Positions 9,001-51,575 of a DNA stretch of 64,000 nt are shown here, piece by piece. This DNA comes from Nemertoderma westbladi. Its lineage: Eukaryota; Animalia; Xenacoelomorpha. The stretch spans positions 45,664 to 109,663 of the forward strand of contig JAUCBJ010000267.1 of assembly GCA_032718475.1 (NCBI GenBank), in the 5' to 3' direction. The translations under genes and the position numbers were made by a program. The notes beneath the pieces are model-generated. The model had not been told where the DNA came from. It was given only the letters and a program-made list of their open reading frames with translations, and ran no database searches. Position 1 is the stretch's first letter. Every line of letters starts with the position of its first letter.

Positions 9001-9301
9001 GGGATGTTTGCGATCAGGTTTCATTGACTACTGTAGTGCAGTGACAGGGTCGGGGATGTTGGCAATCAGGTTTCATTTACTACTGTAGTGCAGTGACAGG
9101 GTCGGGGATGTTGGTGACCAGGTTTCATTGACATACTATAGTGACAGGGTCGGGGATGTTGGCGATCAGGTTTCATTGACATACTGTAGTGACAGGGTCG
9201 GGGATGTTGGCGATCAGGTTTTATTGACTTACTGTAGTGACAGGGTCGGGGATGTTGGCGATCAGGTTTCATTGACATACTGTAGTGACAGGGTCGGGGA
9301 T
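1..9301. repeat. 48-bp tandem satellite, block 1 (consensus GACATACTGTAGTGACAGGGTCGGGGATGTTGGCGATCAGGTTTCATT)
   Basis: Head-to-tail 48-bp monomers with recurrent variants, interrupted only at 2613-3037. It runs off the left edge of the window. Confidence 0.98.
2613..3037 (-). mobile_element. 5'-truncated non-LTR retrotransposon (LINE) 3' fragment, clade uncertain (RTE-X/CR1-like)
   Basis: Minus strand reads ...YALWADSYFCESTLNRLNVAYNNTVRRLFGFKRDDSASGMLVSLG..., resembling LINE ORF2 C-termini. It ends in an (AATA)n-like tail and is flanked by TCATT at 2608-2612 and 3038-3042. The paralogous satellite block near 6290 lacks the insert. Confidence 0.65.
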
Positions 9302-11479
9302 TGATAAACAACCGCGACCTCTATACTAACAGCAGAACTGTTGAACAGACCAATACCCGTTAATATCCTTCTGCCAACCTAATAAGTTCTCGTCTAACCA
9401 ATAAGACACAAAGACTGCTCTACTGTTAAGTAAAGGGGCTCAGGAGCGTGATATTACTAAATTGTAAGGGTTGCTAAATACAAAACCGCTACTTACCGTT
9501 AGATGGCGCTAATCTGCCGTCCGCTAATATATTTACTAATTTTACACAACTCCTGCAAAATCGCTTGTTCCTTTCTCTACCGATTGCTCAATAGAGAGCT
9601 AACTGTTCGAATCTATGAGCCACGCGGGAATAACCAAAACAATAAACCCGAGTCGGCTCCCTAAGCTTACTTAAGACGAGTGCGAGAGGCCTTGCACTCA
9701 GAGTATTCTTACGCCTAATTCTATCACTTATTAAAGCACGCTATTACCTACGTCTTTCTAATCGCGAATACTGGGGTTTCTCTAACGTAATGTGTGAATG
9801 CGAGAATATTTAAATATCAAAAATGGTACAGTAATTGTCTCTCGTGGATAGTACCACTCTGGGTCTAAAATTGCCTGCAGCTGGCTTTAGGCCAGCAAAT
9901 CACTAGCGTTTCGTGCGTACCGAATAGTGCGTTCTAGCTGATTGCCCGCTAATGCGAATAACCGCTTAGCGTGAATAGTTTACAGTACTCTAATTATTAC
10001 TTTAGCTACTCTCCGCTATGTTGCGTACTAATTCTTAATTTTACTAATCAATTACAGTCACAAATATTTAACAGCGTACTAATTACTAAGAGTTCCAGAA
10101 TACGTAATTCTAATTTATCACGCAACAGGTTTCGCTAGTAATAGCCTAAATTGCCGTATTACTTTGACCTAATCAGTAACTAATTGTTGTAACTAAGAAA
10201 TAGAAATCAATCAAAGAGAAAAGAGCGCCTACCTAAACATTCACAATCATAGGCACACTTCAGTAACACACCAATCAGCATCAGCAATCACAGTTCGCAA
10301 TTATGCAGTTAACTACTGTATAGCCCACAATTATGCGACTCACTATTCGTACTACACGCTCAACGTTCGAAACGTTGTGATACGTGCAGGCCTCTCCCGG
10401 GTACATATAGGACTCCTAACTAACCTGATTCCCGCCCCCCTAATACTAAATAGAGACGAAACCTGGATCATCAGCCCCCTAATTGCCGTACCGGCGATTG
10501 GTCTGCGTACCACAGCGTTAACTTCCCGACCGCAACGGTGACCCCACGCCAGCGTTGCTCGCTTTGAATCCTCCGCTCTCCCTTAGTCGCCCAACCCCCC
10601 GATGTGCCCACCGCCCGCTGGCGCCTTAGCCCTCCATTACGCTAATAGCTACCGTAGCGGCGCATGCAAATCACAAAGTCTGACAGTCTCAGGAATCCCT
10701 TGGGATTATTGCGCAGAAAGGAATCACATAGAACCATCAATCAAAGGTAGAAATCATAGTTCGATTGTAATTTGCAGTAATCGAAGGAATTATTGAGAAA
10801 CACAAGCAAAGTAATCGCACTAGCAAATCATTCCAAGAAATTAATCAAATTAGCAAATTGCAGAAAATACGATATCCTAATACAAATTAGAGACAGCTCA
10901 GCAAGTAAATTGTAACAGGGGTGTGTCATGTGAGTGAGAGATTGATGATAGGCTCTACCGGCACACCGCCAATTTATAGGTGATCCGGGTGGGATGATGC
11001 AATAGGGTGACTCAATCGCTCTCCTATTGGCTCTCCAGTCCATGCTAGCATTAGACCAACCTGGAAGCAGTTAATCCAATAAGGAGGCCGGATTGTAGCC
11101 CTATGCCCTCAAATTATTACCATATATGGTAATGGATCACGTCTCTGGCTGCTGAATGGCCAGGACGGCGTCCCTATATGCTAGCCCTATCAAACTAATA
11201 TCAGCAAGCACAAAATCCAGGGTCCGAGTAAACTCGCTACCCTGGAACTATCTACATATATCCTAATACAAAATTACGTAGGTAGGGCTACATACTATAC
11301 AAAATGAATGGATGCAAATATATGGGCGTTTTAACTTCCTTACCTAAATGTCACCACACTGCGCCTTATCTAAATAATTATACTGCACAACGGACTAATA
11401 TTACGTACAGTATAACGGACTAATACTGCATACTGCATAATGGACTAATACTGTGGATACAGCGCCATATACCGTAACA
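9302..11479 (-). repeat. Element A 3' LTR (2178 bp)
   Basis: Matches 23915-26100 apart from one 8-bp indel and about 3 substitutions that I could see. Confidence 0.97.
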
Positions 11480-11487
11480 CCGCTCCA
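11480..11487 (-). promoter_or_regulatory. Short polypurine tract of element A (TGGAGCGG immediately before the 3' LTR)
   Basis: Plus-strand CCGCTCCA abuts the LTR. The same GGAGCGG|TG junction occurs in elements B and C. Confidence 0.7.
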
Positions 11488-11640
11488 AGGGAAATCATAT
11501 AATGTTTCCCTCCAATTGTAGAAGAGTATAAGGTGATGTATACAAAACAAAATAAATTTCTTCCAACCAATCTAAATAACATAATAATTCTACTATTTAC
11601 AAATATTGCCATAGATATTGCATAATGAATTACATACAAA

Positions 11641-13473
11641 TTAAGTTTGGAAGGGAGTACCAAACCCGCGGGTTTGATTCCCGAACCACTTCTCCAAAGC
11701 TTCTGGCGTCGGATATTCCATCGACGGTCGGTCTCCCAAATCTCCGATGTTCTGTCGATATACTCCTTCGAATATCGCTAATCCTCTCCTCACCATCGAC
11801 GTATTCTCTAACGATTGGTTGAAGAACGGGGTTAAGAAACGCTTCATCACGTCGGATTGGATTCCCCCTTTCGAGCGAACGTATTGATCTCCTCCGAATA
11901 CCAATGGATGACGCTTCAAAACTCGTGCAACGATATCCGCTAATAAACAAGTCACCGTGTTCGACTCAAGCACCTAATAATATTGTAGCGACGCACGGGG
12001 TGGCGCGCAAATGTTCCAATACACTAACGCTTGCCGCTTGAAGTGGGATTTGAACTCCGCTCCCGGTGGCGTGTTGTATTCGCCATACGCCTCCTCGTAC
12101 TTCTTCTGCGTCTTCAACTTAAAGTCCCAATTATACAACAAGTGTGCTATAAAGCCCATACCAGTCTTGGCAGAGTTGGGATACTCCCTATAAATTCCAA
12201 TATCCTGTGCCCATAGCAACAATAGCTTGGTGTCGACAAACGGTCTCGGCAATCTATCTTCCAGATCAGTCATGGCGTTGAAGTCGCTCTCCAAATCGCT
12301 CTGGACTCCCGATCCCACCTTGACGTAATCTTGGTTGAGAATAGCCTCTCTAACTTTCTTGGGTAACATCCTGGCGTCGATACGCTCCGCTCCGTGCATA
12401 CCTCCTCGCCTGCATACCTCCAAAATCTGTTCCCTAGGATCCTTCCCCTTCCGATATTGTGTCGTTATGATGGGCTCCGGTCTCTCTCGATCCGCCCTCA
12501 CACGCATAAACACATGAGTCACACCATCGGCCGCACGAATTTGAATACACTTGCTAGTCAAGCATTCCTGATGGGACCCTCCTTCATTGTCGTAGAACAT
12601 CACTCTCCAATCCTGCAGTGATTCCTCCGTCTTCCTCCACTGACGCTGAATCTCATCTGATGGGGTCCACATGCGCTCGATCGCCTTGTGGTCATCATAT
12701 CGGGTATAAGAACCCTTCCTCCTCAGCCACGTCTGGTCTACCTCCTCGTCGTCTGGGAATGTAGCCACCGCGACCCATACTTTGATGTACTTATCCAACC
12801 ATCCGAATAGCTTACTCTCCTTCCCCGGAGCTCCAATCTTGTCCAAAGTGTCATAATCTGTGATCTGCATTGGGACATCACGCAAGAACTTCGCGCATAA
12901 AACTTCCCGTAGACAGTCAACGTTCCAATGGTCCGCCATTCTTACCATCGGCAAGAATCGTATCGCTTCTTGCGACTCCGGATGATCTACTAATATCGCA
13001 GGTTCGGTGCCGTCGGAATAATACACCGGTCCGGGTTGAGATACGACCTGTGGAACAAATCCGGTCACTCTCCTCGTCTCCTCTTGATGTCTATCCGCGG
13101 TCTTATTATACTCCGCTATCCTGTTCTCAAAGAACTCTTTCGCCTTCGCCGCTCGCTCCTCCTGCCGCAACGCGTCTATGTCGTCCTGATGCTCAGGCGT
13201 GAGGCTTCTCACTCGGTGAGGTGAAGTAAACGTAGTCCAGGGACTCGAGAGCTCCAAACCCGCGGGTTTGGTACCCGAGTCCCGCGCCGCTTCGCGCCGC
13301 GCCTCTAGATCCTTGTAGGCTCGGTACAGCGAAATGGCCGCTGCCGTCTCTATCAAACTGGGTGTCGAACAGGGTTTAATCTCCGTATACGGATCTAATG
13401 TCGTAACGGTCGGCGTAATGGGTCTCGGAGGTCGCTTTCCGCTGAAGTCGATACTGATCATCGGGTTGCTCAT
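11641..13473 (-). CDS. Element A accessory ORF with a DEDDy-like (WRN/EXD/Mut-7-type) 3'-5' exonuclease domain; 499 aa, in-frame TAG at 11974-11976, then 110 further open codons
   Basis: Motifs appear in the expected order: FYDNEG (ExoI DxE), CIQIRA, LPKKVREAILNQDYVKVGSGVQSDL (ExoII), FVDTK, GMGFIAHLL, W...LQYY*VLE (ExoIII-like). Recognised by eye only. Confidence 0.65.
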
Positions 13474-13554
13474 CGGGTAACCTCCCTCGTTATATCTAAG
13501 GAATTGGTGAGCTGGACATCGCGTTAATATCGGTTCCGGATGTTGCTCGTCTAG

Positions 13555-14043
13555 TCAGTCGGGAATCGCCACGTCCTGTTTATTCATGCATTCACCACAC
13601 TTGTAGAACAGCTTGTACACGCTGAAGACTTTCGGCGTCTCCTGATCCTCGCCTCGAGTCCTCCGATACAGGTGCATTCCGTCGAACTGGTCTCGGACTG
13701 CAGGTAGAGGCTCCTCGTGTCGTAAATACATATTCATATGGTATAGTCGTGCGATTTCCTCGTCCGGATCTGCGCTAATGTCGCACACGTCCAAAGCAAA
13801 GTCGTAGGGATACCGCGTGCGATACTCTCTCCGCAAAACTTCCATCCGGTCCCCCAACGCTCTCATTCTTTCTCTCCGTAATTCTTTATCATAACTTGGT
13901 TTATACTTCCCGTTCAGCTCCATCACGGACCGCCCATGGTAGTAAACGTTAGAGTCTTTACATCCTGGTCGCGCGAATGGTAGCTCCGCCTCCTCTCTGG
14001 CAGTAAATCCTCTGCGCGGTTGCGCTCTAATATCCCTCTCCAT
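13555..14043 (-). CDS. Element A accessory ORF, 162 aa, unknown function, C-terminal YxCxxC
   Basis: Clean ATG-to-stop ORF on the same strand as pol. It shares TRYP, MYL, PLPxV, FxxMxxY and YxCxEC motifs with the ORF at 37155-37862. Confidence 0.7.
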   Translation of the reverse strand: MERDIRAQPRRGFTAREEAELPFARPGCKDSNVYYHGRSVMELNGKYKPSYDKELRRERMRALGDRMEVLRREYRTRYPYDFALDVCDISADPDEEIARLYHMNMYLRHEEPLPAVRDQFDGMHLYRRTRGEDQETPKVFSVYKLFYKCGECMNKQDVAIPD

Positions 14044-14800
14044 TATGTTACGCGTATATACATATATATATATCCCAATAAGTGCCGTTACGTAACCAAT
14101 TACACTGTGGGTAAATCAGTTAGATGCCGCCGAAGGACAGACCTCCCGAACCCCCCCGCCTTCCAGCAGTTCAGGTTCGACTCTCTAGATCCCGTCTCTT
14201 CCTAACTAACTATCCTCTAACCTATTCCCATGCATAGCGCAAAAACTTTGGAGATAAACTGGCCGTGACCAACTCACTTTTTGATGCCCAAACTACTCCC
14301 ATTACTCGTACTAAACTACAGTAGTTAGAAAGGACCATAGCCACAATACTCGACTATACCAAACCCACAGGTTTGATAATCGAACATCACACATCCTGCA
14401 AACTACTGAGTGGGGTCCATGCACGCCTCTGGTGCTACTAACCTTTAGCACCTTAGTTGCACTGTTGGCACCAATCTGTGGAAGTTGCTAAACTCAATTT
14501 ACACTCCTACGTAATATAGCCGTCACCATGGTTTCTAAATGCTATTTTCCAGGCTTCACGACTTTCAAATTACTGTTATCTATAGACGAATTCTAAAACG
14601 CGTCTATACACAGCGTCTGGAATTGTCTTGGGTTCACTTCTAATTTTTAAAATTTTCTAATTTTCCAAAAAATTTTGAAAATAAAATTTTGTTTTGATAC
14701 CCACCAGACAAAACTCAACGCAAATCACCACAACCCCGCTCCTATGCATTTCCTTGTATTTGCATACGAGGAATGCATACGAAGTGAGTTGCGTCCAACA

Positions 14801-16552
14801 CTAACTCTGTTTTGAGGCAGGAGACAAATTATAATCTCCCGTCTCGATACGTGTCTCCTCTAATAACACAATATCTTGGACCGGTCGGTCCAAGGTGTGT
14901 AAACCATTAGTTTTACACCTTTTTGGGTGCGGACACTTGCACCTAATTTTCACAGTGACTGTGCGCACTATGTTTTGCACGTCTGGGTGTGTGTGCAAGA
15001 TCACTCCCGTCTCCCAATACTTTCTCTTGACAATGGGTTCGGTTATCAACACGTAATCTCCCCTTTGGAGACTCCGAACCGTTTTGTACCACTTTGTTCT
15101 GGTGGATATGGTGGGAAGATAGTATTCCCGCCAATATTCCCAGAATGTGTACGCCACAAACTGTGTTACTTTCCAGCTCTTACGACTATATAGGTCGGCA
15201 CTAATGGGTTCTGATGCCGGCACAAGAAATGCTGGACTCTGCATTAGCAAATGATTCGGCGTTAATGCAACACCGTCTGGCAACATAGCTATCGGCCTCG
15301 AGTTTAGGGTATGCTCGATTTCAATGAAAGCTGTGACCAGTTCGTCGTCGGTAAGTTGTTTGTTTACAGGCAATGTTTTGGCAATGGCCTGTTTTACAGA
15401 GCGAACTAAACGCTCCCAACTTCCTCCTCTCCAAGGACTTTCTGGAGTATTAAATCTCCATTCTACTCGTTGCGGCAAAAGTGCTGCAGAAATTTCCTTA
15501 TTCTGTGCTGCTTTATGAGCCGCGTTCAACTCGCTATTCCCTCCGACAAAGTTTGTACCCTTGTCAGAGTAGAACGCCTTTACTAGTCCTCTCCTGGCCA
15601 TAAATCTCTTCAAGGCCAGGAGCAGAGATTTGGTCGACATGTCTGCCACACGCTCGATATGTATGGCTCTACTCGCCATACATGTCAATAGCAGACCCCA
15701 TCGCTTGTGGGTCAGCCGTCCACTCTTTGCTTCAATCGGACCAAAACAATCCACCCCTGTGTTCGTAAAGGGTGGGTCATATGCCTGCACTCTCGCTTCC
15801 GGGAGTTCAGCCATCTCCTGTTCCAATACTCTGGCGTTCACCCTCTTGCAAACCAGACAGGCGTCATACATAGTGCCGACTGCCCTGCTTGGCTGCAATA
15901 GAATGAATCGCTGTCTCGCTGCCGACAAACAGTGTAACCTTCCCGCGTGATGCAACCTCTTATGTATATCCCATAGAATCGCTCTTTGCAATTCTATCGG
16001 GTAACTAGGGATTATCACTGGGAATCGAAACTGTAAGTTTATGTCGACAGTCTGGATTCTCGATCTATGACAAATCAAACCCTTATGGATTAATGGACTC
16101 CATTTTCTAAGGGGTTTATAGAGAACTGGTCGTTGAGCCGATAATAGATGGAATTCTTTAGGGAAGGCACACATTTGATAATATCTCAAATGCTTTAATT
16201 CCGCTTGATCAATCTCATCCTCTGTCAGAGGTTGTTTCAATTTCCGAATTCGCTCACTATTGGTGCTCAATGGTTCTCTCAAATGTTTCGAATGTTTTAA
16301 ACAAAGGTACGAAACGTATCGGCTTAACCACGCAGTTCTTTTACAAATTGTCAGCCAAGAGGCAGACGAATTTAGTAATTTGTCATAAACACTGCATGAC
16401 TCTAATGCCAGCGACGGTTGTCCGCTAACTAATGGAAGTTTCGAATCCAAACCCGCAGGTTTGGAAACCAAAGGATCCATTATGTCGGTCATTTTCTGTC
16501 CGTCACGCCAACTGTGACTCCGGTTTAGTCTGTAAGGGTGGTTTGATGTCAT
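14801..16552 (-). CDS. pol: Element A pol, integrase portion (frameshifted relative to the upstream RT/RNase H)
   Basis: HHCC motif (HKRLHHAG...CLVC) and catalytic motifs TGVDCFGP, YSDKGTNF and GGSWERLV, followed by a BEL-type C-terminus (LDRPVQDIVLL). Confidence 0.93.
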   Translation of the reverse strand: MTSNHPYRLNRSHSWRDGQKMTDIMDPLVSKPAGLDSKLPLVSGQPSLALESCSVYDKLLNSSASWLTICKRTAWLSRYVSYLCLKHSKHLREPLSTNSERIRKLKQPLTEDEIDQAELKHLRYYQMCAFPKEFHLLSAQRPVLYKPLRKWSPLIHKGLICHRSRIQTVDINLQFRFPVIIPSYPIELQRAILWDIHKRLHHAGRLHCLSAARQRFILLQPSRAVGTMYDACLVCKRVNARVLEQEMAELPEARVQAYDPPFTNTGVDCFGPIEAKSGRLTHKRWGLLLTCMASRAIHIERVADMSTKSLLLALKRFMARRGLVKAFYSDKGTNFVGGNSELNAAHKAAQNKEISAALLPQRVEWRFNTPESPWRGGSWERLVRSVKQAIAKTLPVNKQLTDDELVTAFIEIEHTLNSRPIAMLPDGVALTPNHLLMQSPAFLVPASEPISADLYSRKSWKVTQFVAYTFWEYWREYYLPTISTRTKWYKTVRSLQRGDYVLITEPIVKRKYWETGVILHTHPDVQNIVRTVTVKIRCKCPHPKRCKTNGLHTLDRPVQDIVLLEETRIETGDYNLSPASKQS

Positions 16553-17780
16553 AACTTACCCTTCCGGACCTAGTAGTCACGTAAGTCTGTTGGTCTGACA
16601 GGTCTCCGGGCCGCTCCAATAACTCTTCAGGCCGCTCCAATGACTCTTCAGGCCGCTCCAATGACTTAAGTTTGGCTTTAGACTTCGACTTAGAGACTTT
16701 CTCCACTTTGACTTCTGCATCTTCAGGCATCGGATTGGTCACTATCTTTAGTCGTTCTGGCCAATGTTCCTGTGTCCTCGTTAGAAAATCAGGTCCATGC
16801 AACCAAAACTCCTGCGACTCTTCCCGACAGAATTCCGCCGGCATTGCACCTCTCGAAGTTATGTCGGCCGGGTTTAACACTCCCGGACAATGTCTCCATT
16901 GTTCCTTCGTCGAAAAGTCAACGATCTGAGCGCGTCTGTTGGCCACAAATGTCTTTAGTGCAATATTGTCGGCCGCAATGTATACTAACACCAAGGATGC
17001 GTCCGTCCAATAGAATAAGGTCAATGTCGTGTCTAACTCCTCAATTATTTGCTTACTTACCTCGACCGAAACTACAGCCGCCTGTAACTCTGCACGAGGG
17101 ACAGTCATGTATTTGACCGGCATTGTCTTTGATCTAGAAGTCACAAAGGCCGTCTCAAATTTGTCCTGACTTACCTCTCGGCGAAGGTAGGCTACCATAC
17201 CAAAGCCGGTGTCACTTGCGTCACTGAATAAATGCAGCTCGAGATCAGCTGGAAATACCAGCTGATTCGGAAAGTAGGAACGGGGTACGTCTATGTTTTT
17301 CAATAGATGTAACTCGGCTTCCCACTCCCTCCACTGCTTTGCATGTATAGGAGATATTGGTTCGTCCCACTTTAAGTCGGACAACCAAATTTTCCTCATG
17401 CACGCTCGTGCCTGTAATATAACCGGACTGATAAAGTTCATCGGGTCAAATAGTCTACTCAATGTCGATAAGCAAATCCTCTTAGTCAAAACTTTGTCTG
17501 GGCTACTGGGCTCAAATCTAACTCTTACCTGGAACTTGTCTGAGTTCGGGTTCCAAGCGAGTCCCAGTACTCGCGCCATGGGGATTGGTTCTACCCCCAA
17601 TTCTATGTCTCCGCTCCCGCGATCCTTTACCGGGAACGATTCTAATAGGGCCTCCGAGTTAGTAGTGAACTTGGTCAGAGGAAATCCCCCTGTAGCCAAG
17701 CACTCTTGCAGGCCGTGAGCCACTTCTATGGCTTGTTCCGCCGTGTCCTTGGACACCAATCCGTCGTCCATGTAGAAGTT
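16503..17780 (-). CDS. pol: Element A pol, RT C-terminal half plus RNase H (in-frame continuation after the premature TGA at 17781-17783)
   Basis: Motifs NFYMDD, RVLGLAW, LFDPMN, LHLFSDAS, TVPRAELQAA, YWTDAS and NPADITSRG. Confidence 0.93.
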   Translation of the reverse strand, partial: NFYMDDGLVSKDTAEQAIEVAHGLQECLATGGFPLTKFTTNSEALLESFPVKDRGSGDIELGVEPIPMARVLGLAWNPNSDKFQVRVRFEPSSPDKVLTKRICLSTLSRLFDPMNFISPVILQARACMRKIWLSDLKWDEPISPIHAKQWREWEAELHLLKNIDVPRSYFPNQLVFPADLELHLFSDASDTGFGMVAYLRREVSQDKFETAFVTSRSKTMPVKYMTVPRAELQAAVVSVEVSKQIIEELDTTLTLFYWTDASLVLVYIAADNIALKTFVANRRAQIVDFSTKEQWRHCPGVLNPADITSRGAMPAEFCREESQEFWLHGPDFLTRTQEHWPERLKIVTNPMPEDAEVKVEKVSKSKSKAKLKSLERPEESLERPEELLERPGDLSDQQTYVTTRSGRVSYDIKPPLQTKPESQLA

Positions 17781-20700
17781 TCACAAGATGGACTCGATAA
17801 CCTCTACTGGGTACTTACCAATCTGGGCTGTTGCCGTTTTCTTTAGAACAAACAGCGTGCCATTTGGACTATCGCGGGCGCCAAATATCCTAACGTACAT
17901 TTGGTATGTAACCACTGGGCCGGATAAGTCTTCATTCTCGTACCAGAGAAAGCGAAGGCTATCCTGGTCTGCCTTACAGGCTCTTACCTGGTGGAACATC
18001 GCCTCGATGTCACAAGTAAATGCGAATCGCCGCTGTCTAAAACGTAACAGTATTCCGATCAAATAGTTATTCAGGTTGGGACCATCCATCAACTCTGAAT
18101 TCAGGGACATACCTCTATAGACTGCTGCGCAGTCGTTGACTACTCGGACTTTGTCAGGTTTGTCAGGGTGAGTCACATAGTGGTGTGGAAGGTAATAAGT
18201 CTGGTCTGTCACTAAGTCAGGGTCCTCTACCTTCCCAGCAAATCCCTTGGCGAAATAGTTGTTGATCTGGGCGCAATACTTCTCCCTAATGTCCGGATTC
18301 TTCAACAACCGAGCCCTTACTCCATTTAATCTTTTCAAGGCTAAGCTGTAGTTGTTCTCCAACTTAGGTGGTTGTCGACGCCACAACATTCCAACTTCAA
18401 AATGTCCAGTCGGTAGTAGACGTATGGTATCTTCCATCATCTCCAGCGACCGTTTCTCATCAGTAGACATGGCCAGGTCATATCCACCGGGTTCCATTGC
18501 GTCCCTATCCAGCCATTCGACGGTTCTGGCTCCTGTCTCGAGGTCCTGGCATATCAATTCCTTCTGTAATTCCTCCTCACTGTACTGGAAAATGTCTAGG
18601 TCTCGATATTTAGCCACTTGACCCTCCACTATTTCTGTATAAGTCAAAACGTTAGTCAGATAAGTAGCGTGGGCCGCTGAACCAGACCCACGGGTCTGAT
18701 AACAGTAGTCCTCGGGTTCACTATCTGTCCGGTCGTTATGAAGTGGTTCCGACAACCTAACATTATCGGGAATCAACTCCTCGTCCGACTCGCTAAAGTC
18801 ACTATAGTGGTCAATGCAGGTTCTCCTAAACTCGTCTATGTCTGGTGGTTCTACTAACGGTGGTTGAGTTATAGGCTGTAATTCGTCGTATCTGTCCATT
18901 GGCTTGTCGCCACCTGTAAACTCATAAGACATGGGTACTCTTGTATACCAACCTAGTATGGTCCTATGGGCATGTGGTCCATTGACATGCGGCTCAGCTG
19001 GTCTCGTTTCCCATATCTGGTGTGCGATCAGCTGTTCTGCACCAATTAACATAGAAACATTCCTATAACCTACCTGGTGTCTGGGTATCCTGAGCTTGTC
19101 AAAATACTCCTGTGCTATGGGACTCATCGGCGGCACCTTACCTAACTGCCTGCCGAATCCCTTCATAGCTAGACACTTAAATCCGTCCAATGGCAAAGCT
19201 TTCCGTTCTTGTCGAGTGTGTTGGTCTCTCGGAAGTAGGGAATCTAGTTCTACCGAAATTCTGTGTCCCTTGAGGTCTCCTACCCCGTGCATAGACTTCA
19301 ACTCTATTTGGATCTCCTCGGCGTCCTGGAAGCTAGAAACAGCTCTCGCCACTTCCTCGTCGATATACGATAATGTGGACGCAGTGTCCAACATCACATA
19401 TATTCGTTTCGATCCCTTATCTCCAGTGAGTTTCACCGGAATCACGCTAAATATTTCCGACGTGGCCGATGATAAATACGTCCGCGCGCTGGTCGATGAA
19501 CTATCCGCGGTGAAACCTTGGCAGGTCACTTCTCTCGCGCTCAACTCGCCATCCTCGTCCGACGAACCTGGTTGGTAACCATCGTCCTGGATGCCAGTGT
19601 ACGTATTCCTCCTTATCGATACGGGTTCTTTGCTCCCCTTCCTGTGAGGATTTCGCTGTAAGTAACGGTCCGTTGGGGTATGGAAATCCGCATGTAGCAA
19701 CTTGTGATGTAGTCTGCCGCATTCCATGCATCCGTCCTTGCTGTTCGGGCACTGCCGCCATACATGGCCTGGCGCAAGACATGCCCAACAGGTGTCCAAC
19801 GTCCGCACTTGAACTCTTCTCTGTTCCGAATTTAATTCTTTGAACCGTCTGCAACTATCTAACTTATGGTCGTCAGATCTTACCTCCTTTAGTAAACAGT
19901 ATTGGCAACCTACAAATCCATCCGGCAACTCCTGTTGCTTTAACCTAGGTCTATCTAACCGCTCACCTGACCATACTCGCGAGTCTGATCTAAAGGCTGG
20001 GGTATTCGAATTATATCTGTCTACTGAGTTATAAGTCACAGTGGTCCTGTCATCGTCAAAACTTACCATAGACTTACCGGTAACAGGTTTAGACTCCCTC
20101 ATATTCTCTTCTGAGAAGTTTGATTTCATCTCTGCTACTGCGTCTGTGGCTATCATGTCATGAATATGCTGAAGTGTCAACACCTTACCTTGGCCCTCCA
20201 ACTTATTCTCTAATTTGCGCCATTTCTGTCTGTAACGCATGTTTAGACGTCTTATTACGCTTTTCAAAACTTCGGCGTGATCACCATGATGAGGTAGATT
20301 CACCGTCCTCAAGATGTCCAATGCGTTCGAAATAGCGTTCGCTAAGTTCAACAGCTCTAACGGAGTTGTAATCCTTCCGCCCTTACCCAAGTCTTCTACT
20401 ATCGACTGCGCCATCTTCGTTTTATTCCCGTAGATGTCACTAAGCGTCTTCATCGCTAACTCAAATGCTCTTTCATTGCCGACGAAGTTATCAGCAATGG
20501 CTCTAGGTTCTCGATGGAGCATCTGAAGCAAATAGTTGAACTTCTCGTTGGGAGTAAAGGTGCTGTTGGTTAGCTGCTCGTCGACATAGGTTCTAAAGGT
20601 CCTCCAGTGCTTGTGGTTGCCCATAAACTTCTGGGGTTGTTGCGTCGGCAGTCCTTGCCTAGCAGCAAACTTACCTATGTCCCTAAGGGTTGCGTCATTC

Positions 20701-22754
20701 CGGGTTAACAAATGGTTTAGTTCCGCAGGGTTATTAAGTCTGGTCCTTTCCCGGTGGTTCCAACTTACCTGCTCCGCGTCCGTCCTTCTTTCCTTATAGT
20801 TTCGGGACTTCTGACGTCTCATGTCTTCCTTTTCATCGCTTGACTCGGTGTCAGTCCTTAGCGCTCGCGATGGTTTGCGCGCCGAGGCCCTGATCCAAGC
20901 ATCCTCAATAAATTTCTCTGCCGAATTTTCGAAATTGGGATTATGGATATTCGGGACAGGCGTCCTTACCTGAGGTCTATGTGGTATAGTCTCCTCCGAT
21001 ATGCGTACTCGTTGACTAGGCTGGACTTTATCTAACTCAGGCCTGCTGGGATTAGAATTACTTCTTACCTGGGCTGCTTCCTTTAACCGTAGGTTGCTAA
21101 GCATGTCCGTTATAGGTTGGATGTGCGGCGATATAGCTTGCGCTAAACTAGCACTTAACTCATCCCTCGTAATAAATTCCTGGCTAGGGTTCTGTTGTAT
21201 AGTCGGCTCTATCTGAGTAATCCGCTGTCTCTCATATGATCCCTCTTCCGGTTTAACCCGGAAGTTCTCCGTCGAACTGGGTCGGCGCTCCGTCCGCGTA
21301 TTCCAAACCCTCGGGTTCGGTTCGCCAAATACTCGGCCCGTCGGAGTTTCTTCTCTAAATTCTCCGTTGTCACGTTCGGTATACAGTGGTGCGGTGTTCC
21401 GATGACGTAGATCCTGGGCGATAGGTGAAGCACTAATACCAACTGGCGTGCGATATGTAGAGAACGGTTTAACGATCCGTGTACTCGTAATAGCTGGACC
21501 GGGTATAGGAATTCTGGTCGTCGTCGACTCGCGTATAGCCGGAGTTCTCGCTTCCTGTTCGGCCTTCTGCAGTGCGAACAGTTCTCGCAACTCAGTCCCT
21601 ACACTCGCCCTACATTCTTCGATCATTCGCATCCCCTTCTCGGCGATTTCGTTCGCCTGGTTCGTCCGCTCGGCTTCCTTCCGTGCTTCCTGTGCACGCA
21701 AAACTTCCGCCTGCTGTTCGTCTAGTCGGCGTCTTCTCTCCTCCGCCGATTTGTGAGAAACAAGGGATCTAGCACATATTACTTTACCTCGCGCGTGACT
21801 AACCTGGGAATCGCCGCTGTCTCTAGATGCATCGTCGGGTGGAGTTAACGCCCTCTGTTGAATGTTCTCCGTCGTCGGTAGCACCTGACCTGGTACCACC
21901 ACTCCATTCTGCATCAGCCAGCTAGTAACTTCCCTCTGATAACGGCGCTCTTCCTTATCTTGGATCTCTTCTCGCTCCACTAAGTCTCTCAACTCTACGT
22001 CACTCACCTGAGTCGCCTGCGCTTGTGATGTCCATAGAAGCCAGTTCTCCGTCCTAACTCGTCGGAATCGCTCCGATAACTCGCGGTGCTCCAACAAGGC
22101 TGCTAAAACCCTGTCGTAAATCCTCGTCGCCACGTCGCTCGACTGAGACTCTACTGCCTTCTTCGCTAGGACTGCAAGCTCCTCCGTCTGCTTGAATAAC
22201 GCTGAGTTATATCCTCTTCTAATCTCTACTAACTCTACCCTCCCGATGTTCGCTGGGTCAGCTAACATTTTCCTTACCTTGTCCGCCGTCCGAGTTATAT
22301 GTCCGGCATGCGCGCGAAGTTTCTTCTTTATCGCGATATCGAACTCTCTATCACTCACCTGACTTACGCTCGGTGGACTTGAAGGATTATTTCGGGAACT
22401 ACGGGTACTCCTAACAGCCGTCGGAACCACGGCACTTACCATACCCACAGGTCTGGAAACCGGGCTCCGGGCTCTCGCTTCTGCTACACTACCCTCCCTA
22501 TCACTCACCTCTGTCCGGGCTGCCGTACAGTCCTTCCTATCAGTAGCGGTAGGGGATCCTAATACTATTACCTGAGGCTGCTGTTCTTCCTCACTAGTCA
22601 CTGTCTCGTCCTCCTGTTCACTTACGTCAGCGTCACTCGCTGCGTCGTCATAGTCGGCATTGTCATCAACAGTAATATTTACGCTATCGTCAGTCGGCGG
22701 TCCAGCCGCCGTCTCGTAGCTGTCCTCTAGTGCCTCTTTGTCTGAGACACTCAT
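17781..22754 (-). CDS. gag-pol: Element A gag-protease-RT (N-terminal half) polyprotein, 1657 aa
   Basis: BEL gag core (KFMGN...W..F...EKFNYL), triple Cys/His array (CQYC..H....C, CWACLAPGHVWRQC, CMECGRLHHKLLH), protease VMLDTAS, and RT motifs YYLPHH, KVRVVND and DIEAMFHQV. Confidence 0.95.
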   Translation of the reverse strand: MSVSDKEALEDSYETAAGPPTDDSVNITVDDNADYDDAASDADVSEQEDETVTSEEEQQPQVIVLGSPTATDRKDCTAARTEVSDREGSVAEARARSPVSRPVGMVSAVVPTAVRSTRSSRNNPSSPPSVSQVSDREFDIAIKKKLRAHAGHITRTADKVRKMLADPANIGRVELVEIRRGYNSALFKQTEELAVLAKKAVESQSSDVATRIYDRVLAALLEHRELSERFRRVRTENWLLWTSQAQATQVSDVELRDLVEREEIQDKEERRYQREVTSWLMQNGVVVPGQVLPTTENIQQRALTPPDDASRDSGDSQVSHARGKVICARSLVSHKSAEERRRRLDEQQAEVLRAQEARKEAERTNQANEIAEKGMRMIEECRASVGTELRELFALQKAEQEARTPAIRESTTTRIPIPGPAITSTRIVKPFSTYRTPVGISASPIAQDLRHRNTAPLYTERDNGEFREETPTGRVFGEPNPRVWNTRTERRPSSTENFRVKPEEGSYERQRITQIEPTIQQNPSQEFITRDELSASLAQAISPHIQPITDMLSNLRLKEAAQVRSNSNPSRPELDKVQPSQRVRISEETIPHRPQVRTPVPNIHNPNFENSAEKFIEDAWIRASARKPSRALRTDTESSDEKEDMRRQKSRNYKERRTDAEQVSWNHRERTRLNNPAELNHLLTRNDATLRDIGKFAARQGLPTQQPQKFMGNHKHWRTFRTYVDEQLTNSTFTPNEKFNYLLQMLHREPRAIADNFVGNERAFELAMKTLSDIYGNKTKMAQSIVEDLGKGGRITTPLELLNLANAISNALDILRTVNLPHHGDHAEVLKSVIRRLNMRYRQKWRKLENKLEGQGKVLTLQHIHDMIATDAVAEMKSNFSEENMRESKPVTGKSMVSFDDDRTTVTYNSVDRYNSNTPAFRSDSRVWSGERLDRPRLKQQELPDGFVGCQYCLLKEVRSDDHKLDSCRRFKELNSEQRRVQVRTLDTCWACLAPGHVWRQCPNSKDGCMECGRLHHKLLHADFHTPTDRYLQRNPHRKGSKEPVSIRRNTYTGIQDDGYQPGSSDEDGELSAREVTCQGFTADSSSTSARTYLSSATSEIFSVIPVKLTGDKGSKRIYVMLDTASTLSYIDEEVARAVSSFQDAEEIQIELKSMHGVGDLKGHRISVELDSLLPRDQHTRQERKALPLDGFKCLAMKGFGRQLGKVPPMSPIAQEYFDKLRIPRHQVGYRNVSMLIGAEQLIAHQIWETRPAEPHVNGPHAHRTILGWYTRVPMSYEFTGGDKPMDRYDELQPITQPPLVEPPDIDEFRRTCIDHYSDFSESDEELIPDNVRLSEPLHNDRTDSEPEDYCYQTRGSGSAAHATYLTNVLTYTEIVEGQVAKYRDLDIFQYSEEELQKELICQDLETGARTVEWLDRDAMEPGGYDLAMSTDEKRSLEMMEDTIRLLPTGHFEVGMLWRRQPPKLENNYSLALKRLNGVRARLLKNPDIREKYCAQINNYFAKGFAGKVEDPDLVTDQTYYLPHHYVTHPDKPDKVRVVNDCAAVYRGMSLNSELMDGPNLNNYLIGILLRFRQRRFAFTCDIEAMFHQVRACKADQDSLRFLWYENEDLSGPVVTYQMYVRIFGARDSPNGTLFVLKKTATAQIGKYPVEVIESIL

Positions 22755-23904
22755 AGTCTAAATAATATTTGCCTTCCGGCAAAAATCTCGCAAAAGTTCG
22801 AGATATAATTATAATTTAACCGAAATACGGTCAAATTATTTGTCAAATAATCAGTTGGTCCAAATGTCAAATAAATTCGCAATACAATATTGTGAATTTA
22901 ATGGGGTATATAGTTATAGCAAATACTAACACAATATTTAAACAAAAATATTATTATATAGCTACTATATAATATTAAATACCGGTATAGCACAAAATAA
23001 CTCTGAATCTAATACAAAATATTCAAAATAGACTTGCCACCCGAATATTTCCAATTTTATATATAGCTCTAATCAACGCAATTTTAGTTTCAAATATTAT
23101 ATGTATCCACTAGCGCGTGGCTACATCTTCGGGTTGCGACTCTCTCTAACTCTCTCTCTAACTTGAGCGATTCAAAAAAACCATGGCCGGCTAAACCTAA
23201 ATATCCTAACTAATAAATTGAGTTCAGCTTCGCAGTTAAACAACCGGTAATTTTTTACTGCTTCCACAAACACACTGGCGCCAACAGAACAACTAACCTT
23301 GTTTGCTGTGAGATTCCACGTCCGCGTCCAAAGATTCAGGCCCTTCGCTGATTGCAAACCGAACCCGCAGACCCACACGAACCCCAAACTCAGAAGTCCC
23401 GTCTTGCCATGTATCTCCAGATGGTATAAAATAACTAAGCGGTTACCTAACATACCGGTACAAAACTCTAGAATTTTACAAATAATTTTGACCGAAAACT
23501 GAATTCTCGCAAACCTAGCTAATAATTTTCAAAAACTTACTAATTACAATTTGCCCTAAGGCCTAAGGAACTGCTGTATTCGCAATTAGCAAAACGCACT
23601 ACCGTACATCCACTGTATGCAGTACAGTAAGTAAAACAGTACACCAACCTAACAGCCTAATGATACTGTGTGTGGTACGGCAAACAAATGTCCTTCTACC
23701 GTACGCAGTAACAGCAATCAGCCTAATGTACTACTGTACTAGTGTACGCAGCCAGTGAATACTCTATCTGCCTTACTGTACGCAGTACAGCAAAGCAATA
23801 CTGCACGTATCACTGATACAAAGTATCAGTGATCTAAACTAATAGCAGTCTAAACTAACAGCCTAAGAATACACTATTGACCGCTGCAAGCAACAGCCAA
23901 TAAT

Positions 23905-23914
23905 CACGTATCAC
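23905..23914 (-). promoter_or_regulatory. Element A primer-binding-site position (GTGATACGTG), complementary to its own LTR rather than TGG-type
   Basis: Immediately follows the 5' LTR on the minus strand. Exact reverse complement of the minus-strand LTR segment CACGTATCAC (24998-25007). Confidence 0.75.
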
Positions 23915-26100
23915 TGATAAACAACCGCGACCTCTATACTAACAGCAGAACTGTTGAACAGACCAATACCCGTTAATATCCTTCTGCCAACCTAATAAGT
24001 TCTCGTCTAACCAATAAGACACAAAGACTGCTCTACTGTTAAGTAAAGGGGCTCAGGAGCGTGATATTACTAAATTGTAAGGGTTGCTAAATACAAAACC
24101 GCTACTTACCGTTAGATGGCGCTAATCTGCCGTCCGCTAATATATTTACTAATTTTACACAACCAGACAACTCCTGCAAAATCGCTTGTTCCTTTCTCTA
24201 CCGATTGCTCAATAGAGAGCTAACTGTTCGAATCTATGAGCCACGCGGGAATAACCAAAACAATAAACCCGAGTCGGCTCCCTAAGCTTACTTAAGACGA
24301 GTGCGAGAGGCCTTGCACTCAGAGTATTCTTACGCCTAATTCTATCACTTATTAAAGCACGCTATTACCTACGTCTTTCTAATCGCGAATACTGGGGTTT
24401 CTCTAACGTAATGTGTGAATGCGAGAATATTTAAATATCAAAAATGGTACAGTAATTGTCTCTCGTGGATAGTACCACTCTGGGTCTAAAATTGCCTGCA
24501 GCTGGCTTTAGGCCAGCAAATCACTAGCGTTTCGTGCGTACCGAATAGTGCGTTCTAGCTGATTGCCCGCTAATGCGAATAACCGCTTAGCGTGAATAGT
24601 TTACAGTACTCTAATTATTACTTTAGCTACTCTCCGCTATGCTGCGTACTAATTCTTAATTTTACTAATCAATTACAGTCACAAATATTTAACAGCGTAC
24701 TAATTACTAAGAGTTCCAGAATACGTAATTCTAATTTATCACGCAACAGGTTTCGCTAGTAATAGCCTAAATTGCCGTATTACTTTGACCTAATCAGTAA
24801 CTAATTGTTGTAACTAAGAAATAGAAATCAATCAAAGAGAAAAGAGCGCCTACCTAAACATTCACAATCATAGGCACACTTCAGTAACACACCAATCAGC
24901 ATCAGCAATCACAGTTCGCAATTATGCAGTTAACTACTGTATAGCCCACAATTATGCGACTCACTATTCGTACTACACGCTCAACGTTCGAAACGTTGTG
25001 ATACGTGCAGGCCTCTCCCGGGTACATATAGGACTCCTAACTAACCTGATTCCCGCCCCCCTAATACTAAATAGAGACGAAACCTGGATCATCAGCCCCC
25101 TAATTGCCGTACCGGCGATTGGTCTGCGTACCACAGCGTTAACTTCCCGACCGCAACGGTGACCCCACGCCAGCGTTGCTCGCTTTGAATCCTCCGCTCT
25201 CCCTTAGTCGCCCAACCCCCCGATGTGCCCACCGCCCGCTGGCGCCTTAGCCCTCCATTACGCTAATAGCTACCGTAGCGGCGCATGCAAATCACAAAGT
25301 CTGACAGTCTCAGGAATCCCTTGGGATTATTGCGCAGAAAGGAATCACATAGAACCATCAATCAAAGGTAGAAATCATAGTTCGATTGTAATTTGCAGTA
25401 ATCGAAGGAATTATTGAGAAACACAAGCAAAGTAATCGCACTAGCAAATCATTCCAAGAAATTAATCAAATTAGCAAATTGCAGAAAATACGATATCCTA
25501 ATACAAATTAGAGACAGCTCAGCAAGTAAATTGTAACAGGGGTGTGTCATGTGAGTGAGAGATTGATGATAGGCTCTACCGGCACACCGCCAATTTATAG
25601 GTGATCCGGGTGGGATGATGCAATAGGGTGACTCAATCGCTCTCCTATTGGCTCTCCAGTCCATGCTAGCATTAGACCAACCTGGAAGCAGTTAATCCAA
25701 TAAGGAGGCAGGATTGTAGCCCTATGCCCTCAAATAATTACCATATATGGTAATGGATCACGTCTCTGGCTGCTGAATGGCCAGGACGGCGTCCCTATAT
25801 GCTAGCCCTATCAAACTAATATCAGCAAGCACAAAATCCAGGGTCCGAGTAAACTCGCTACCCTGGAACTATCTACATATATCCTAATACAAAATTACGT
25901 AGGTAGGGCTACATACTATACAAAATGAATGGATGCAAATATATGGGCGTTTTAACTTCCTTACCTAAATGTCACCACACTGCGCCTTATCTAAATAATT
26001 ATACTGCACAACGGACTAATATTACGTACAGTATAACGGACTAATACTGCATACTGCATAATGGACTAATACTGTGGATACAGCGCCATATACCGTAACA
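23915..26100 (-). repeat. Element A 5' LTR (2186 bp)
   Basis: Minus strand reads TGTTACGG...GTTTATCA. Direct repeat of 9302-11479. Confidence 0.97.
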
Positions 26101-29100: not shown

Positions 29101-30488
29101 TGTAGTGCAGTGACAGGGTCGGGGATGTTGGCAATCAGGTTTCATTTACTACTGTAGTGCAGTGACAGGGTCGGGGATGTTGGTGACCAGGTTTCATTGA
29201 CATACTGTAGTGACAGGGTCGGGGATGTTGGCGATCAGGTTTCATTGACATACTGTAGTGACAGGGTCGGGGATGTTGGCGATCAGGTTTTATTGACTTA
29301 CTGTAGTGACAGGGTCGGGGATGTTGGCGATCAGGTTTCATTGACATACTGTAGTGACAGGGTCGGGGATGTTGGCGATCGGGTTTCATTGACATACTGT
29401 AATGACAGGGTCGGGGATGTTGGCGATCAGGTTTCATTGACATACTGTAGTGACAGGCTCGGGGATGTTGGCGACCAGGTTTCATTGACATACTGTAGTG
29501 ACAGGGTCGGGGATGTTGGCAATCAGGTTTCATTGACTTACTGTAGTGACAGGGTCGGGGATGTTGGCGATCAGGTTTCATTGACATACTGTAGTGACAG
29601 GGTCGGGGATGTTGGCGATCAGGTTTCATTGACATACTGTAGTGACAGGGTCGGGATGTTGGCGATCAGGTTTCATTGACATGTAGTGCAGTGACAGGGT
29701 CGGGGATGTTGGCGATCAGGTTTCATTGACATACTGTAGTGACAGGGTCGGGGATGTTGGCGATCAGGTTTCATTGACATACTGTAATGACAAGGTCGGG
29801 GATGTTGGCGATCACCTTTCATTGACATGCTGTAGTGACAGGGTCGGGGATGTTGGCGATCAGGTTTCATTGACATGTAGTGCAGTGACAGGGTCGGGAA
29901 TGTTGGCGATCAGGTTTCATTGACATACTGTAGTGATGGTCGGGGATGTTGGCGATCAGGTTTCATTGACATACTGTAGTGACTGGGTCGGGGATGATGG
30001 CGATCAGGTTTCATTGACATACTGTAGTGACAGGGTCGGGGATGTTGGCGATCAGGTTTCATTGAGATACTGTAGTGTAGTGACAGTGTCGGGGATGTTG
30101 GCGATCAGGTTTCATTGACATACTGTAGTGTAGTGACAGGGTCGGGGATGTTGGCGATCAGGTTTCATTGACATACTGTAGTGACAGGGTCGGGGATGTT
30201 GGCGATCAGGTTTCATTGACATACTGTAGTGACAGGGTCGGGGATGTTGGCGATCAGGTTTCATTGACATACTGTAGTGACAGGGTCGGGGATGTTGGCG
30301 ATCAGGTTTCATTGACATACTGTAGTGACAGGGTCGGGGATGTTGCCGATCGGGTTTCATTGACATACTGTAGTTGACAGGGTCGGGGATGTTGGCGATT
30401 AGGTTTCATTGACATACTGTAGTGACAGGGTCGGGGATGTTGGCGATCAGGTTTCATTGACATACTGTAGTGACAGGGTCGGGGATGT
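26101..30488. repeat. 48-bp tandem satellite, block 2
   Basis: Same monomer. It resumes in register after the GGGAT TSD. Confidence 0.98.
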
Positions 30489-30536
30489 TGTAAAAGCTTT
30501 TGCGTAATTAGCCGGTTATTTTCCCCGTAAAGTACT

Positions 30537-36887: not shown

Positions 36888-37154
36888 TTATTATGTCAAT
36901 AAAACGCCTAAAGACCAGGTAAGTAAATTCAAGTCTCTAACCAATGACAGGAGAGAACAGGTAAGAAAAACTCCTCCTACGTCTCCCAAGAGAATTCAGG
37001 TGAGAAAGCCCGAGGAAAGAACGAACGTACACCACACAGCACATGTTAAAGTAAGTAACATCAAGCCCAAATGTGTGCTGTGCGATGGGCCCCACCGTTT
37101 AAATGCGTGTGATAAATTCCTGAGGAAATCACTAAAGGATAGACGTGAAGTCAT

Positions 37155-37862
37155 GTGGGAAACATAGAAACATATCTCAATATTGCCAGTCAACAAAATA
37201 TAGAAACTCGATATCCTCAAGGTATACATCATGACCGCATGGTAGAACTCAAACGGATCGATTCCCCTATGATGTATCTTACCGCCGATCGACCGCTACC
37301 TGTTGTACCGAATAGCTTCGAACGGATGGAGGAATATTGTAAGCTGGAGAAAGATCACTCGCGTTTCCCCTACAAGACGTACGTTTTTGGGTATTATTGC
37401 GATGAATGCCCAAGACCCAACCAACAAACGGAAAGACGTAAACATCCGCGGAGACGTTGCTTTAAACACGGTTTTACTCGCTATACTTACGGGAGTTTCG
37501 AGCGAAACTTGTTCAATGTATCACCTACGCTCGTTCGACTCAGACGATCCTTAAATAAACCAATGATCAGAGTTTCGGAATACTCGATCAGAGCTCCTCA
37601 TTCCCTAATGAGACCTCAGACTCTTGATCCTATTAGTATGACGGATCCTCCCGAGCTGTACTCACTGCTCAAAGATCTGGTGTTGCCTGAACGATTGGTC
37701 GGTGGCACCCCAGTTGTGGGTTTCTTAGATATTAGCCCATCCTACCTAGCCGGATTGGGACGCGGACATTTAATATCGCCGTTTAACCCTTACCATCGTC
37801 CCGGCTTGACACAATATAACCTGTCACCAGAGTGGCGGAGAACGTTGTACCAAACGAGTTAA
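37155..37862 (+). CDS. Element B accessory ORF (5' end removed by the gag/accessory deletion junction near 37160), homologous to 13555-14043
   Basis: ETRYPQ...MMYLTADRPLPVVPNSFERMEEY...YYCDEC. A degenerate copy is present in C at about 50050-51150. Confidence 0.65.
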   Translation: MGNIETYLNIASQQNIETRYPQGIHHDRMVELKRIDSPMMYLTADRPLPVVPNSFERMEEYCKLEKDHSRFPYKTYVFGYYCDECPRPNQQTERRKHPRRRCFKHGFTRYTYGSFERNLFNVSPTLVRLRRSLNKPMIRVSEYSIRAPHSLMRPQTLDPISMTDPPELYSLLKDLVLPERLVGGTPVVGFLDISPSYLAGLGRGHLISPFNPYHRPGLTQYNLSPEWRRTLYQTS

Positions 37863-38333
37863 ACGCTATTCTACAAAGATCAGAAAGGAAACCTACGTTT
37901 GTTCAGATAAACGTAAGTTGTAACAGCAAGTCCAAGCGATAAACGAATTGTCTTTATCTCAGTTCGATTGTGAAATCCAGAATCTCTAAGAAGATATCGC
38001 ACTTAGACAACCCCATTCTCTGCGAGAGTTTTTGGATGAACGTATCCAGCTACGAGCGGAGGAAAATCAGCTCGAGGAGAAGCATATCGAAACGGCGGAT
38101 ACCCCTACCATAATCCTACACCTTCTGATGCAATCATATTGCACCCTTCACCCAGGATTTATAGCCCTCCTAGTAAAGTGGCTCCCCCCAAAGAGAAAAG
38201 GACTCTTGCTAGCCTCAAAAAACTGCGTAAACGCCGTCTGCGTAAGAAAGACTAACTGTTTAGAGTATTTTTATATTTTAGAAACTGTGATTTGTTATAT
38301 TTTATAGACTTAAATCCCATTTTCTGGGAGCGG

Positions 38334-50049: not shown

Positions 50050-51151
50050 ATGATTGAGTTGATAGAAGATGATCTTGGTATCAGGGAACGATATACTCTA
50101 CCTTTACAAGCGTTTGTTGATAGCTTGATACGCGGCGACGCTGGTCCAACTACTACGGAGGACGATGGTCGTTATATCTAACCGCCAATGTCCCGGGAGC
50201 AACTTGCGCGTGGGTTAGACTGTAGAAAATTCACCGCTCGCTATACGCATCGTAATGGTACGTATATGGACTTCTTAACTACTGGTCATCCTATCGACCT
50301 ACACGATACGAACGATATAGACACCAAAGGGAAATGGTTTATTTAAATATCATACCCAGCGGAAGCGGAATGATAAACTGAGACTCGAACACGAAAATTC
50401 TATTCGAAACCGACTCGAAAGTGCAGATGTCGAAGAGCCGGATAAATGCAGCGACTCCACCAAATACCTGGAATTCTTGAGAGAAACCTATCTCGATATT
50501 ACCAGTCAACAGAATCTAGAAACTCGATATCCTCAAGGTATACATCATGACCGCATGGTAGAACTCAAACGGCTCTATTCCACTATGATGTATCTTACCG
50601 CCGATCGATCGCTACCTGTTGTACCGGATAGCTTCGAACGGATGGAGGAATATTGTAAAACCGAATAAATATCACCCGCATTTGCGATGAATGCCCAAGA
50701 CCCAACCAACAAACGGAAAGACATAAACATCCGCGGAGACGTTGCTTTAAACACGGTTTTACTCGCTATACTTACGGGAGTTTCGAGCGAAACTTGTTCG
50801 ATGTATCACCTACGCTCATTCGACTCAGACGATCCTTAAATAAACCAATGATCAGAGTTTCGGAATACTCGATCAGAACTCCTCATTCCCTAGTGAGACT
50901 TCAGACTCTTGATCCTATTAGTATGACGGATCCTCCCGAGCTGTACTCACTACTCAAAGATCTAGTGTTACCTGAACAATTAGTCGGTGGCACCCCAGTT
51001 GTGGGCTTCCTAGATACTAGCCCATTCTACCTAGCCGGATTGGGACGCGGACATTTAATATCGCCGTTTAACCCTTACCATCGTCCCGTCCCGGCTTAAC
51101 ACGATATAACCTGTCACCAAAGTGGCGGAGAACGTTGTACCAAACGAGTTA
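50050..51151 (+). pseudogene. Element C accessory ORF, disrupted by stops and frameshifts
   Basis: Fragments 50477-50668 and 50794-51099 match the ORF at 37155-37862. Upstream coding-like sequence contains in-frame stops. The 5' boundary is approximate. Confidence 0.7.
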
Positions 51152-51575
51152 AACGCTATTCTACAAAGATCAGAAAGGAAACCTGCGTTTGTTCAGATAA
51201 ACGTAAGTTGTAACAGCAAGTCCAAGCGATAAACGAATTGTCTTTATCTCAGTTCGATTGTGAAATCCAGAATCTCTAAGAAGATATCGAACTTAGACAA
51301 CCCCATTCTCTGCGAGAGTTTTTGGATGAACGTATCCAGCTACGAGCGGAGGAAAATCAGCTCGAGGAGAAGCATATCGAAACGGCGGATACCCCGACCA
51401 TTTATAGCCCTCCTAGTAAAGTGGCTCGCCCCAAAGAGAAAGGGACTCTTGCTAGCCTCAAAAACTGCGTAAACGCCGTCTGTGTAAGAAAGACTAACTG
51501 TTTAGAGTATCTTTATATTTTAGAAACTGTGATTTGTTATATTTTATAGACTTAAATCCCATTTTCTGGGAGCGG

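Follow-up and report, generated by a model that had tools for sequence, protein, structure and literature searches.

A selected accessory gene with a probable DEDDy exonuclease-like domain in a BEL/Pao retrotransposon of Nemertoderma westbladi

A BEL/Pao retrotransposon of Nemertoderma westbladi carries an 800-codon open reading frame (ORF3) in the place usually taken by env. ORF3 is a real gene, maintained under strong purifying selection across its family, and its C-terminal half probably adopts a DEDDy-type fold. DEDDy-type ORF3s are already known from LTR elements; a counterpart in BEL/Pao, likely exonuclease-like, appears to be new. All coordinates refer to the 64,000-nucleotide stretch of contig JAUCBJ010000267.1 that we analysed (hereafter the window), and the features described below are collected in Table 1.

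Table 1 Features of the first BEL/Pao element, ORF3 and the second BEL family in the window
Feature	Position	Strand	Remarks
5′ LTR	23915..26100	-	2186 bp, TG...CA
PBS region	23804..23914	-	without TGG tRNA-type start
gag-pol, BEL/Pao type	14801..22757	-	domain matches and YMDD
Candidate splice acceptor (branch-point-like CTAAC and CAG)	14105..14123	-	one of two such matches from pol to the ATG
ORF3, 800 codons	11641..14043	-	interrupted in the window copy by two stops
N-terminal module, residues 71-232	13348..13833	-	common to the second BEL family
DEDDy-like domain, residues ~478-722	11878..12612	-	motifs, P0003 link, block test
PPT position, short purine-leaning tract	11480..11491	-	directly ahead of the 3′ LTR
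3′ LTR	9302..11479	-	2178 bp, TG...CA
Degraded ORF3 homolog, N-terminal module only	37149..38091	+	pol-deleted second-family copy, LTR at ~38334
N-terminal module homolog, second copy, frameshifted	50507..51423	+	ahead of LTR at ~51576

An accessory reading frame in a complete BEL/Pao element

The element, which runs from 26100 to 9302 on the minus strand, is a complete LTR retrotransposon of 16.8 kb with a 5-bp target duplication, ATCCC, on either flank. Its LTRs are 99.5% identical, differing by three substitutions and one 8-nt indel, and the family to which it belongs is young and multi-copy. We class the element as BEL/Pao because its polyprotein matches DUF1759 (7e-9), Peptidase_A17 (3e-40) and DUF5641 (2e-17) above the Pfam cut-offs, a combination that we take to be the hallmark of BEL/Pao polyproteins. 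Integrase_H2C2 (2e-5) scored 25.4 bits against a cut-off of 25.5, and the domain order is of the Pao type (gag, RT, RNase H region, integrase), with the YMDD of the RT visible.

A 10-mer occurs twice in the PBS region and can pair, over 10 and 13 nt, with the middle of the LTR (LTR position ~1091-1094, window ~24998-25010, minus strand). The PBS region is possibly a self-priming site, in which case the arrangement would resemble that of Tf1. The element has inserted into an array of 48-bp tandem repeats that is strongly GC-skewed (window 1-9300, 26100-30500 and 52200-54700); the window's copies of a second BEL family abut the array as well.

The original prediction of a BEL/Pao element with an extra ORF in the env slot agrees with this anatomy, as ORF3 lies on the pol strand, between pol and the 3′ LTR, and ends 161 bp short of the latter. 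Counted from the ATG at 14043, the frame comprises 800 codons and is interrupted twice in the window copy: a TGA at 13555-13557 cuts off the ORF that lies upstream in frame, and beyond a TAG at 11974-11976, exactly as had been noted, 110 open codons run on to 11641. The earlier estimate of about 610 aa for the intact protein was too short, since the TGA hides the 5′ part, and a homolog from the second BEL family aligns across it.

The gag-pol of the window copy is also broken, by an in-frame stop (17781-17783) just ahead of the RT YMDD and by a frame change near 16555-16503, ahead of the integrase. The window copy thus has four frame breaks, two in pol and two in ORF3, despite only three LTR substitutions; this exceeds what such a young copy should show, and may reflect a defective parent or errors of assembly.

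ORF3 may be expressed from a spliced subgenomic mRNA; between the candidate splice acceptor and the ATG of ORF3 there is another ATG, out of frame. Judged by its sequence, ORF3 is not env-like: its best 19-residue hydropathy window reaches 1.34, with no clear transmembrane stretch, and Pfam and PDB sequence searches returned no env family or fusogen match. Two hits, to rotavirus VP4 (E 0.086) and to Fis1_TPR_N (E 0.22), were dismissed as chance.

The N-terminal module of ORF3 contains a CxxC...CxxH arrangement (C149, C152, C176, H179), a putative zinc site, and is shared with the second BEL family. This family is represented in the window by two adjacent pol-deleted copies on the plus strand (~30537-39519 and ~39519-52209), which are 91% identical to each other at the DNA level and whose gag region is 23% identical to that of the first family. 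Homology of the module to the second family reached E 6e-7 in a search within the window, with none of 1000 shuffles as good, and CxxC...CxxH is present in both proteins. The alignment spans the TGA at 13555-13557 and is significant on each side of it (0 and 1 of 1000 shuffles). Similarity continues weakly to about residue 320 (E 0.3), after which the second-family homolog gives way to the LTR, and no nuclease part was found ahead of the LTR in the two copies within the window; as both copies are also devoid of pol, deletion is indistinguishable here from a native lack of the nuclease part. The module had no Pfam match, and its second-family homolog no usable atlas match.

Purifying selection on ORF3 across the family

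The ORF3 stretch is present, whole or in part, in six of nine listed sequencing runs from four studies, one of which may be the source of the window. The two stops of the window copy are not family-wide. Position 11975 has a different letter in all the contigs aligned from runs X1-X4 (15, 5, 5 and 1, respectively), none of which carries the TAG; the original prediction had proposed to look for a sense codon here in other copies. At position 13557 the window letter accounts for only ~71 of 40369 depth units in X1, 105 of 57190 in X2 and 0 of 58068 in X3. Contigs lose rare variants, and these comparisons therefore speak to whether the stops are common to the family and to nothing further. Run X4 is RNA by guess alone and consists of low-depth pieces, and was kept out of any reading of expression; similarly, summed contig depth is not read as copy number.

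Constraint on ORF3 in other copies had been named beforehand as a test of the prediction, and it is pronounced. In the whole-ORF comparison, 32 of the best 40 of 174 variant rows fall within ORF3, and once the two stops are set aside 27 of 30 are synonymous, among them 7 of the 8 that precede the TGA and all 3 that come after the TAG. In the nuclease-like part, 34 variants are synonymous among the best 40 of 93 rows. The union of the two sets, in which 54 of 63 variants are synonymous against ~30% expected (p 8e-20), places ORF3 under purifying selection, with a pN/pS of ~0.07 that is approximate, being drawn from the best-supported rows (40 of 174 and 40 of 93) and from ORF3 alone.

The five motif codons of the nuclease-like domain are hit by none of the 63 listed variants. 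None of the best 12 of 21 indels in the whole-ORF comparison lies inside ORF3; in the nuclease-part comparison one X6 contig had lost 1 nt, and deletions were present in a few contigs of low depth. Additionally, contigs that differ by ~15-20% over window 11990-12720 occur in runs X1-X3, pointing to more diverged subfamilies with the nuclease-like domain in the same species.

A probable DEDDy-like domain and its one detectable relative

The ExoI, ExoII, FVD and ExoIII-like motifs that had been predicted all lie in one minus-strand frame at the sites where they had been placed: FYDNEG at 12597-12580, KVGSGVQSDL at 12321-12292, FVDTK at 12240-12226 and QYY*VLE, interrupted by the TAG, at 11985-11965. 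They supply the candidate active-site residues D485 and E487 (ExoI-like), D583 (ExoII-like), and Y689 and E693 (ExoIII-like). The ExoIII of ORF3 is YxxxE and not the canonical YxxxD, with Glu for Asp as the fourth acid; because the same Glu is found in P0003, the relative described below, we name ORF3 DEDDy-like and not a member of the family.

A loose pattern of the ordered motifs, written after the motifs had been seen, was matched in 5 of 2000 shuffles. In a test with blocks taken from 74 bacterial DEDDy proteins, the segments of ORF3 selected were FYDNE, CIQI and the ExoII site, at a score matched by 3 of 300 shuffles; the ExoIII site of ORF3 was not selected, and a pol fragment reached 18.9 versus 19.6 for ORF3. 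The ExoII Asp follows K-x-G, and an alignment of ORF3 and P0003 with 48 bacterial WRN-like proteins has K-x-G-x5-D in every one of its 50 rows.

Among 1,835,955,588 proteins, P0003 was the sole relative of ORF3 (E 1.1e-5), no other reaching E 0.001. It is a 648-aa singleton from a 9449-bp ENA contig, with a DEDDy-like domain that has YxxxE and with C-terminal CCHC knuckles, which point to nucleic-acid binding. The alignment covers ORF3 residues 560-718, from ExoII through ExoIII, at 27% over 162 columns. Its ExoIII stretch beats 1000 of 1000 shuffles, the alignment of the ExoI region is not significant (367 of 1000 shuffles), and P0003 keeps the same D-E-D-YxxxE set as ORF3.

By four weak tests, P0003 itself looks like a WRN/EXD-type exonuclease. 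It matched PF01612 at E 0.2, with 11.9 bits against a cut-off of 23.6; its language-model features scored 0.94 to a 3′-5′ exonuclease cluster in which 34% of members carry PF01612; hhalign aligned its ExoI and ExoII with bacterial WRN-like proteins (E 0.0034, probability 9.5%); and none of 300 shuffles scored as high in the block-chain test. The atlas clusters nearest to P0003 are eukaryotic, three of them unnamed. A word-based protein search with P0003 30-275 returned P0003 itself alone, and no match to it was found in plasmids and phages. Likewise, word-based protein searches with ORF3 270-610 and with an alignment (A2) yielded no relative, A2 matched none of 301 bacterial genomes, and related loci were absent from the viral and metagenome contigs searched.

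Direct comparisons of ORF3 with known families were less favourable. The DNA_pol_A_exo1 or WRN_exo-type domain that the original prediction proposed to look for did not emerge, as ORF3 had no significant match in Pfam, NCBIfam or PDB sequence searches and none to PF01612. ORF3 went undetected by a profile built from 38 of 40 loci, mainly short RNase D proteins, and came 4th of 1072 (E 8) with a profile built from 50 WRN-like proteins. With hhalign, ORF3 by itself reached a probability of 1.5% and its pair with P0003 25%, over ExoII only. Two insertions of ~30-35 residues break up the DEDDy-like core.

Structure prediction gave models of low confidence. The single-sequence model of the domain had a pLDDT of 33.7, at which a fold search is without meaning, and a model steered by 39 bacterial rows, spanning ExoI to just past ExoII (9 of 48 having been dropped by pattern), reached 46.5, with strands 2-3 probably misaligned. 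The ExoI region was predicted as strands in both. The best Foldseek E values were 0.2 (single-sequence) and 0.055 (steered); rows for EXD2 and WRN, ranked at the top, and for RICE1 came from the steered model only, and are circular and non-significant (E 0.055 or worse). In the VIA fold comparison the best Z was 3.5, with none at or above 5, and Nibbler EXO, ExoI and diDNase stood at Z 2.7-2.8, level with unrelated helical proteins.

We consider a DEDDy-type fold probable for the C-terminal half of ORF3, because of the transitive link from ORF3 through P0003 to PF01612-like clusters together with the order of the motifs, and, given that fold, catalytic activity would be moderately likely.

The non-significance of every direct profile and fold test on ORF3 would be expected if it were a genuine accessory protein under selection but with a different fold, and its DEDD motifs in part resembled the family by chance. 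We regard this as rather unlikely, as the homology to P0003 was significant in a whole-library search over ~160 residues, the four weak tests above point P0003 to the same exonuclease family, and the blocks of bacterial origin agree with the motifs on where ExoI and ExoII lie in ORF3. Should the fold prove to be another, ORF3 would still be an 800-aa accessory protein under selection, unnamed and with a single detectable relative.

Possible roles, precedents and origin

The reading that we tentatively favour is that ORF3, as a selected accessory gene, encodes a likely DEDDy exonuclease that would attack the 3′ ends of RNA in trans, with the small silencing RNAs of the host as the likeliest substrate. 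The protein, combining a zinc-like N-terminal module with the exonuclease-like domain, would be made apart from Gag-Pol, from a subgenomic mRNA spliced at the candidate acceptor. As a diffusible exonuclease it would then trim RNA 3′ ends in trans, and an attack on silencing RNAs would favour the element. We prefer a diffusible factor over a step within the particle because the gene occupies the env slot and is kept separate from the Pol polyprotein. The host proteins Nibbler, Mut-7 and EXD1 act on small silencing RNAs, and it is for this reason, together with the location of the gene outside Pol, that such RNAs are favoured as the substrate. Of these and related proteins, mut-7, EXD1 and Maelstrom are treated in PMC5408684 too. 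Selection on ORF3 is purifying and not positive, and so gives no sign of an arms race.

A more elaborate form of the same idea appears doubtful to us. It would make ORF3 a modular accessory gene of BEL/Pao in this animal, in which a conserved zinc-binding N-terminal module was joined by an active D-E-D-E exonuclease gained by one abundant family, trimming or destroying the 3′ ends of piRNAs or siRNAs and thereby suppressing germline silencing.

An active DEDDy exonuclease could instead serve the replication of the element itself, trimming the 3′ end of an unusual, possibly self-derived primer, or the cDNA ends before integration. Purifying selection suits such a housekeeping enzyme, no tRNA-type TGG follows the 5′ LTR, and the PBS region shows the complementarity to the LTR described above. 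Moreover, the intact DEDDy domain of Dada transposons is thought to process 3′ ends, according to the available text of PMC3706591, and 3′-end processing of element RNA is raised in that of PMC5408684. However, ORF3 lies outside the Pol polyprotein, and the second BEL family has the N-terminal module without the nuclease part, though both of its copies are deleted derivatives, and we hold this role to be fairly unlikely.

Also unlikely is a DEDDy fold that is catalytically dead or weak and that binds RNA as a decoy or scaffold, in the manner of EXD1 and Maelstrom, which the available text of PMC5408684 describes as inactive DEDD derivatives that still bind RNA. The Glu that ends ExoIII and the insertions of ~30-35 residues in the core are consistent with such a loss. 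Nevertheless, each of the four positions still holds an acidic residue, the Tyr is retained, and D-E-D-YxxxE recurs in the distant P0003; furthermore, the rotifer ORF3s also vary the motif (DEED, in the same source). A degenerate env, or a captured host pseudogene decaying neutrally, as the env slot and the two stops of the window copy might suggest, is highly improbable and already largely refuted by the strong purifying selection, by stops that other copies do not share, and by the lack of a clear transmembrane stretch (1.34) or env family match in ORF3.

Element-borne DEDDy ORF3s are known from the Juno and Vesta LTR retrotransposons and the Athena/Terminon elements of bdelloid rotifers (Rodriguez et al. 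2017, PMC5408684), as restated in the available parts of PMC5718144, PMC6431247 and PMC6338049. Like the ORF3 described here, itself probably DEDDy-like, they are, in the text available of PMC5408684, separate ORFs downstream of pol in the place of env, of DEDDy type with a variant motif. The present element differs from them in belonging to BEL/Pao, in having the motif D-E-D-E against DEED there (PMC5408684, available text), and in the length of its ORF3, ~800 aa with an N-terminal module common to two BEL families. The strong purifying selection found here also contrasts with the neutral variation reported, in the accessible portion of PMC5408684, for sequenced rotifer ORF3s, which were env and GDSL and not DEDDy. 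The rotifer DEDDy-like ORF3s are described, as far as the available text goes, without evidence of benefit to the element, whereas the ORF3 studied here is selected, in a young multi-copy family of a different superfamily. This makes testable both the role of non-env accessory enzymes and whether animal elements deploy enzymes against small-RNA silencing.

Within BEL/Pao, env-like ORFs such as the F-like ORF of roo and the chuvirus-like glycoproteins of mosquito elements occupy the same slot in the same superfamily (PMC13524379, available text), and, unlike these, ORF3 has no glycoprotein features. The word 'exonuclease' is absent from the available text of that paper, which lists env-like ORFs of BEL/Pao. 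In the open literature outside Repbase and subscription journals, judged mostly by search listings, no exonuclease ORF turned up for BEL/Pao, which is no proof of novelty.

Regarding origin, the original prediction of a captured host nuclease of Mut-7/EXD1 type found no support: P0003 was the sole relative among 1.84 billion proteins, and because it alone reached E 0.001, there is no support for a host gene of the Mut-7, EXD or WRN type having been captured recently. Our guess is that a shared mobile pool would be the simpler source of the nuclease-like part of ORF3; element-borne DEDDy ORFs were found to be related more closely to one another than to genes of the host (PMC5408684, available text). 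With WRN, EXD2, Mut-7 (Nibbler) and EXD1 (PF01612), ORF3 shares the order and spacing of strand-DxE, K-x-G-x5-D, D-T, xG-x-G and Y-x3-acid; it departs from them in its lack of a significant direct match, in the Glu of ExoIII and in the two insertions, and nothing traces it to one particular host gene. A transposon-borne DEDDy exonuclease is likewise found in Dada DNA transposons, where, unlike in ORF3, the domain lies within the DDE transposase and has the canonical DEDD (PMC3706591, available text).
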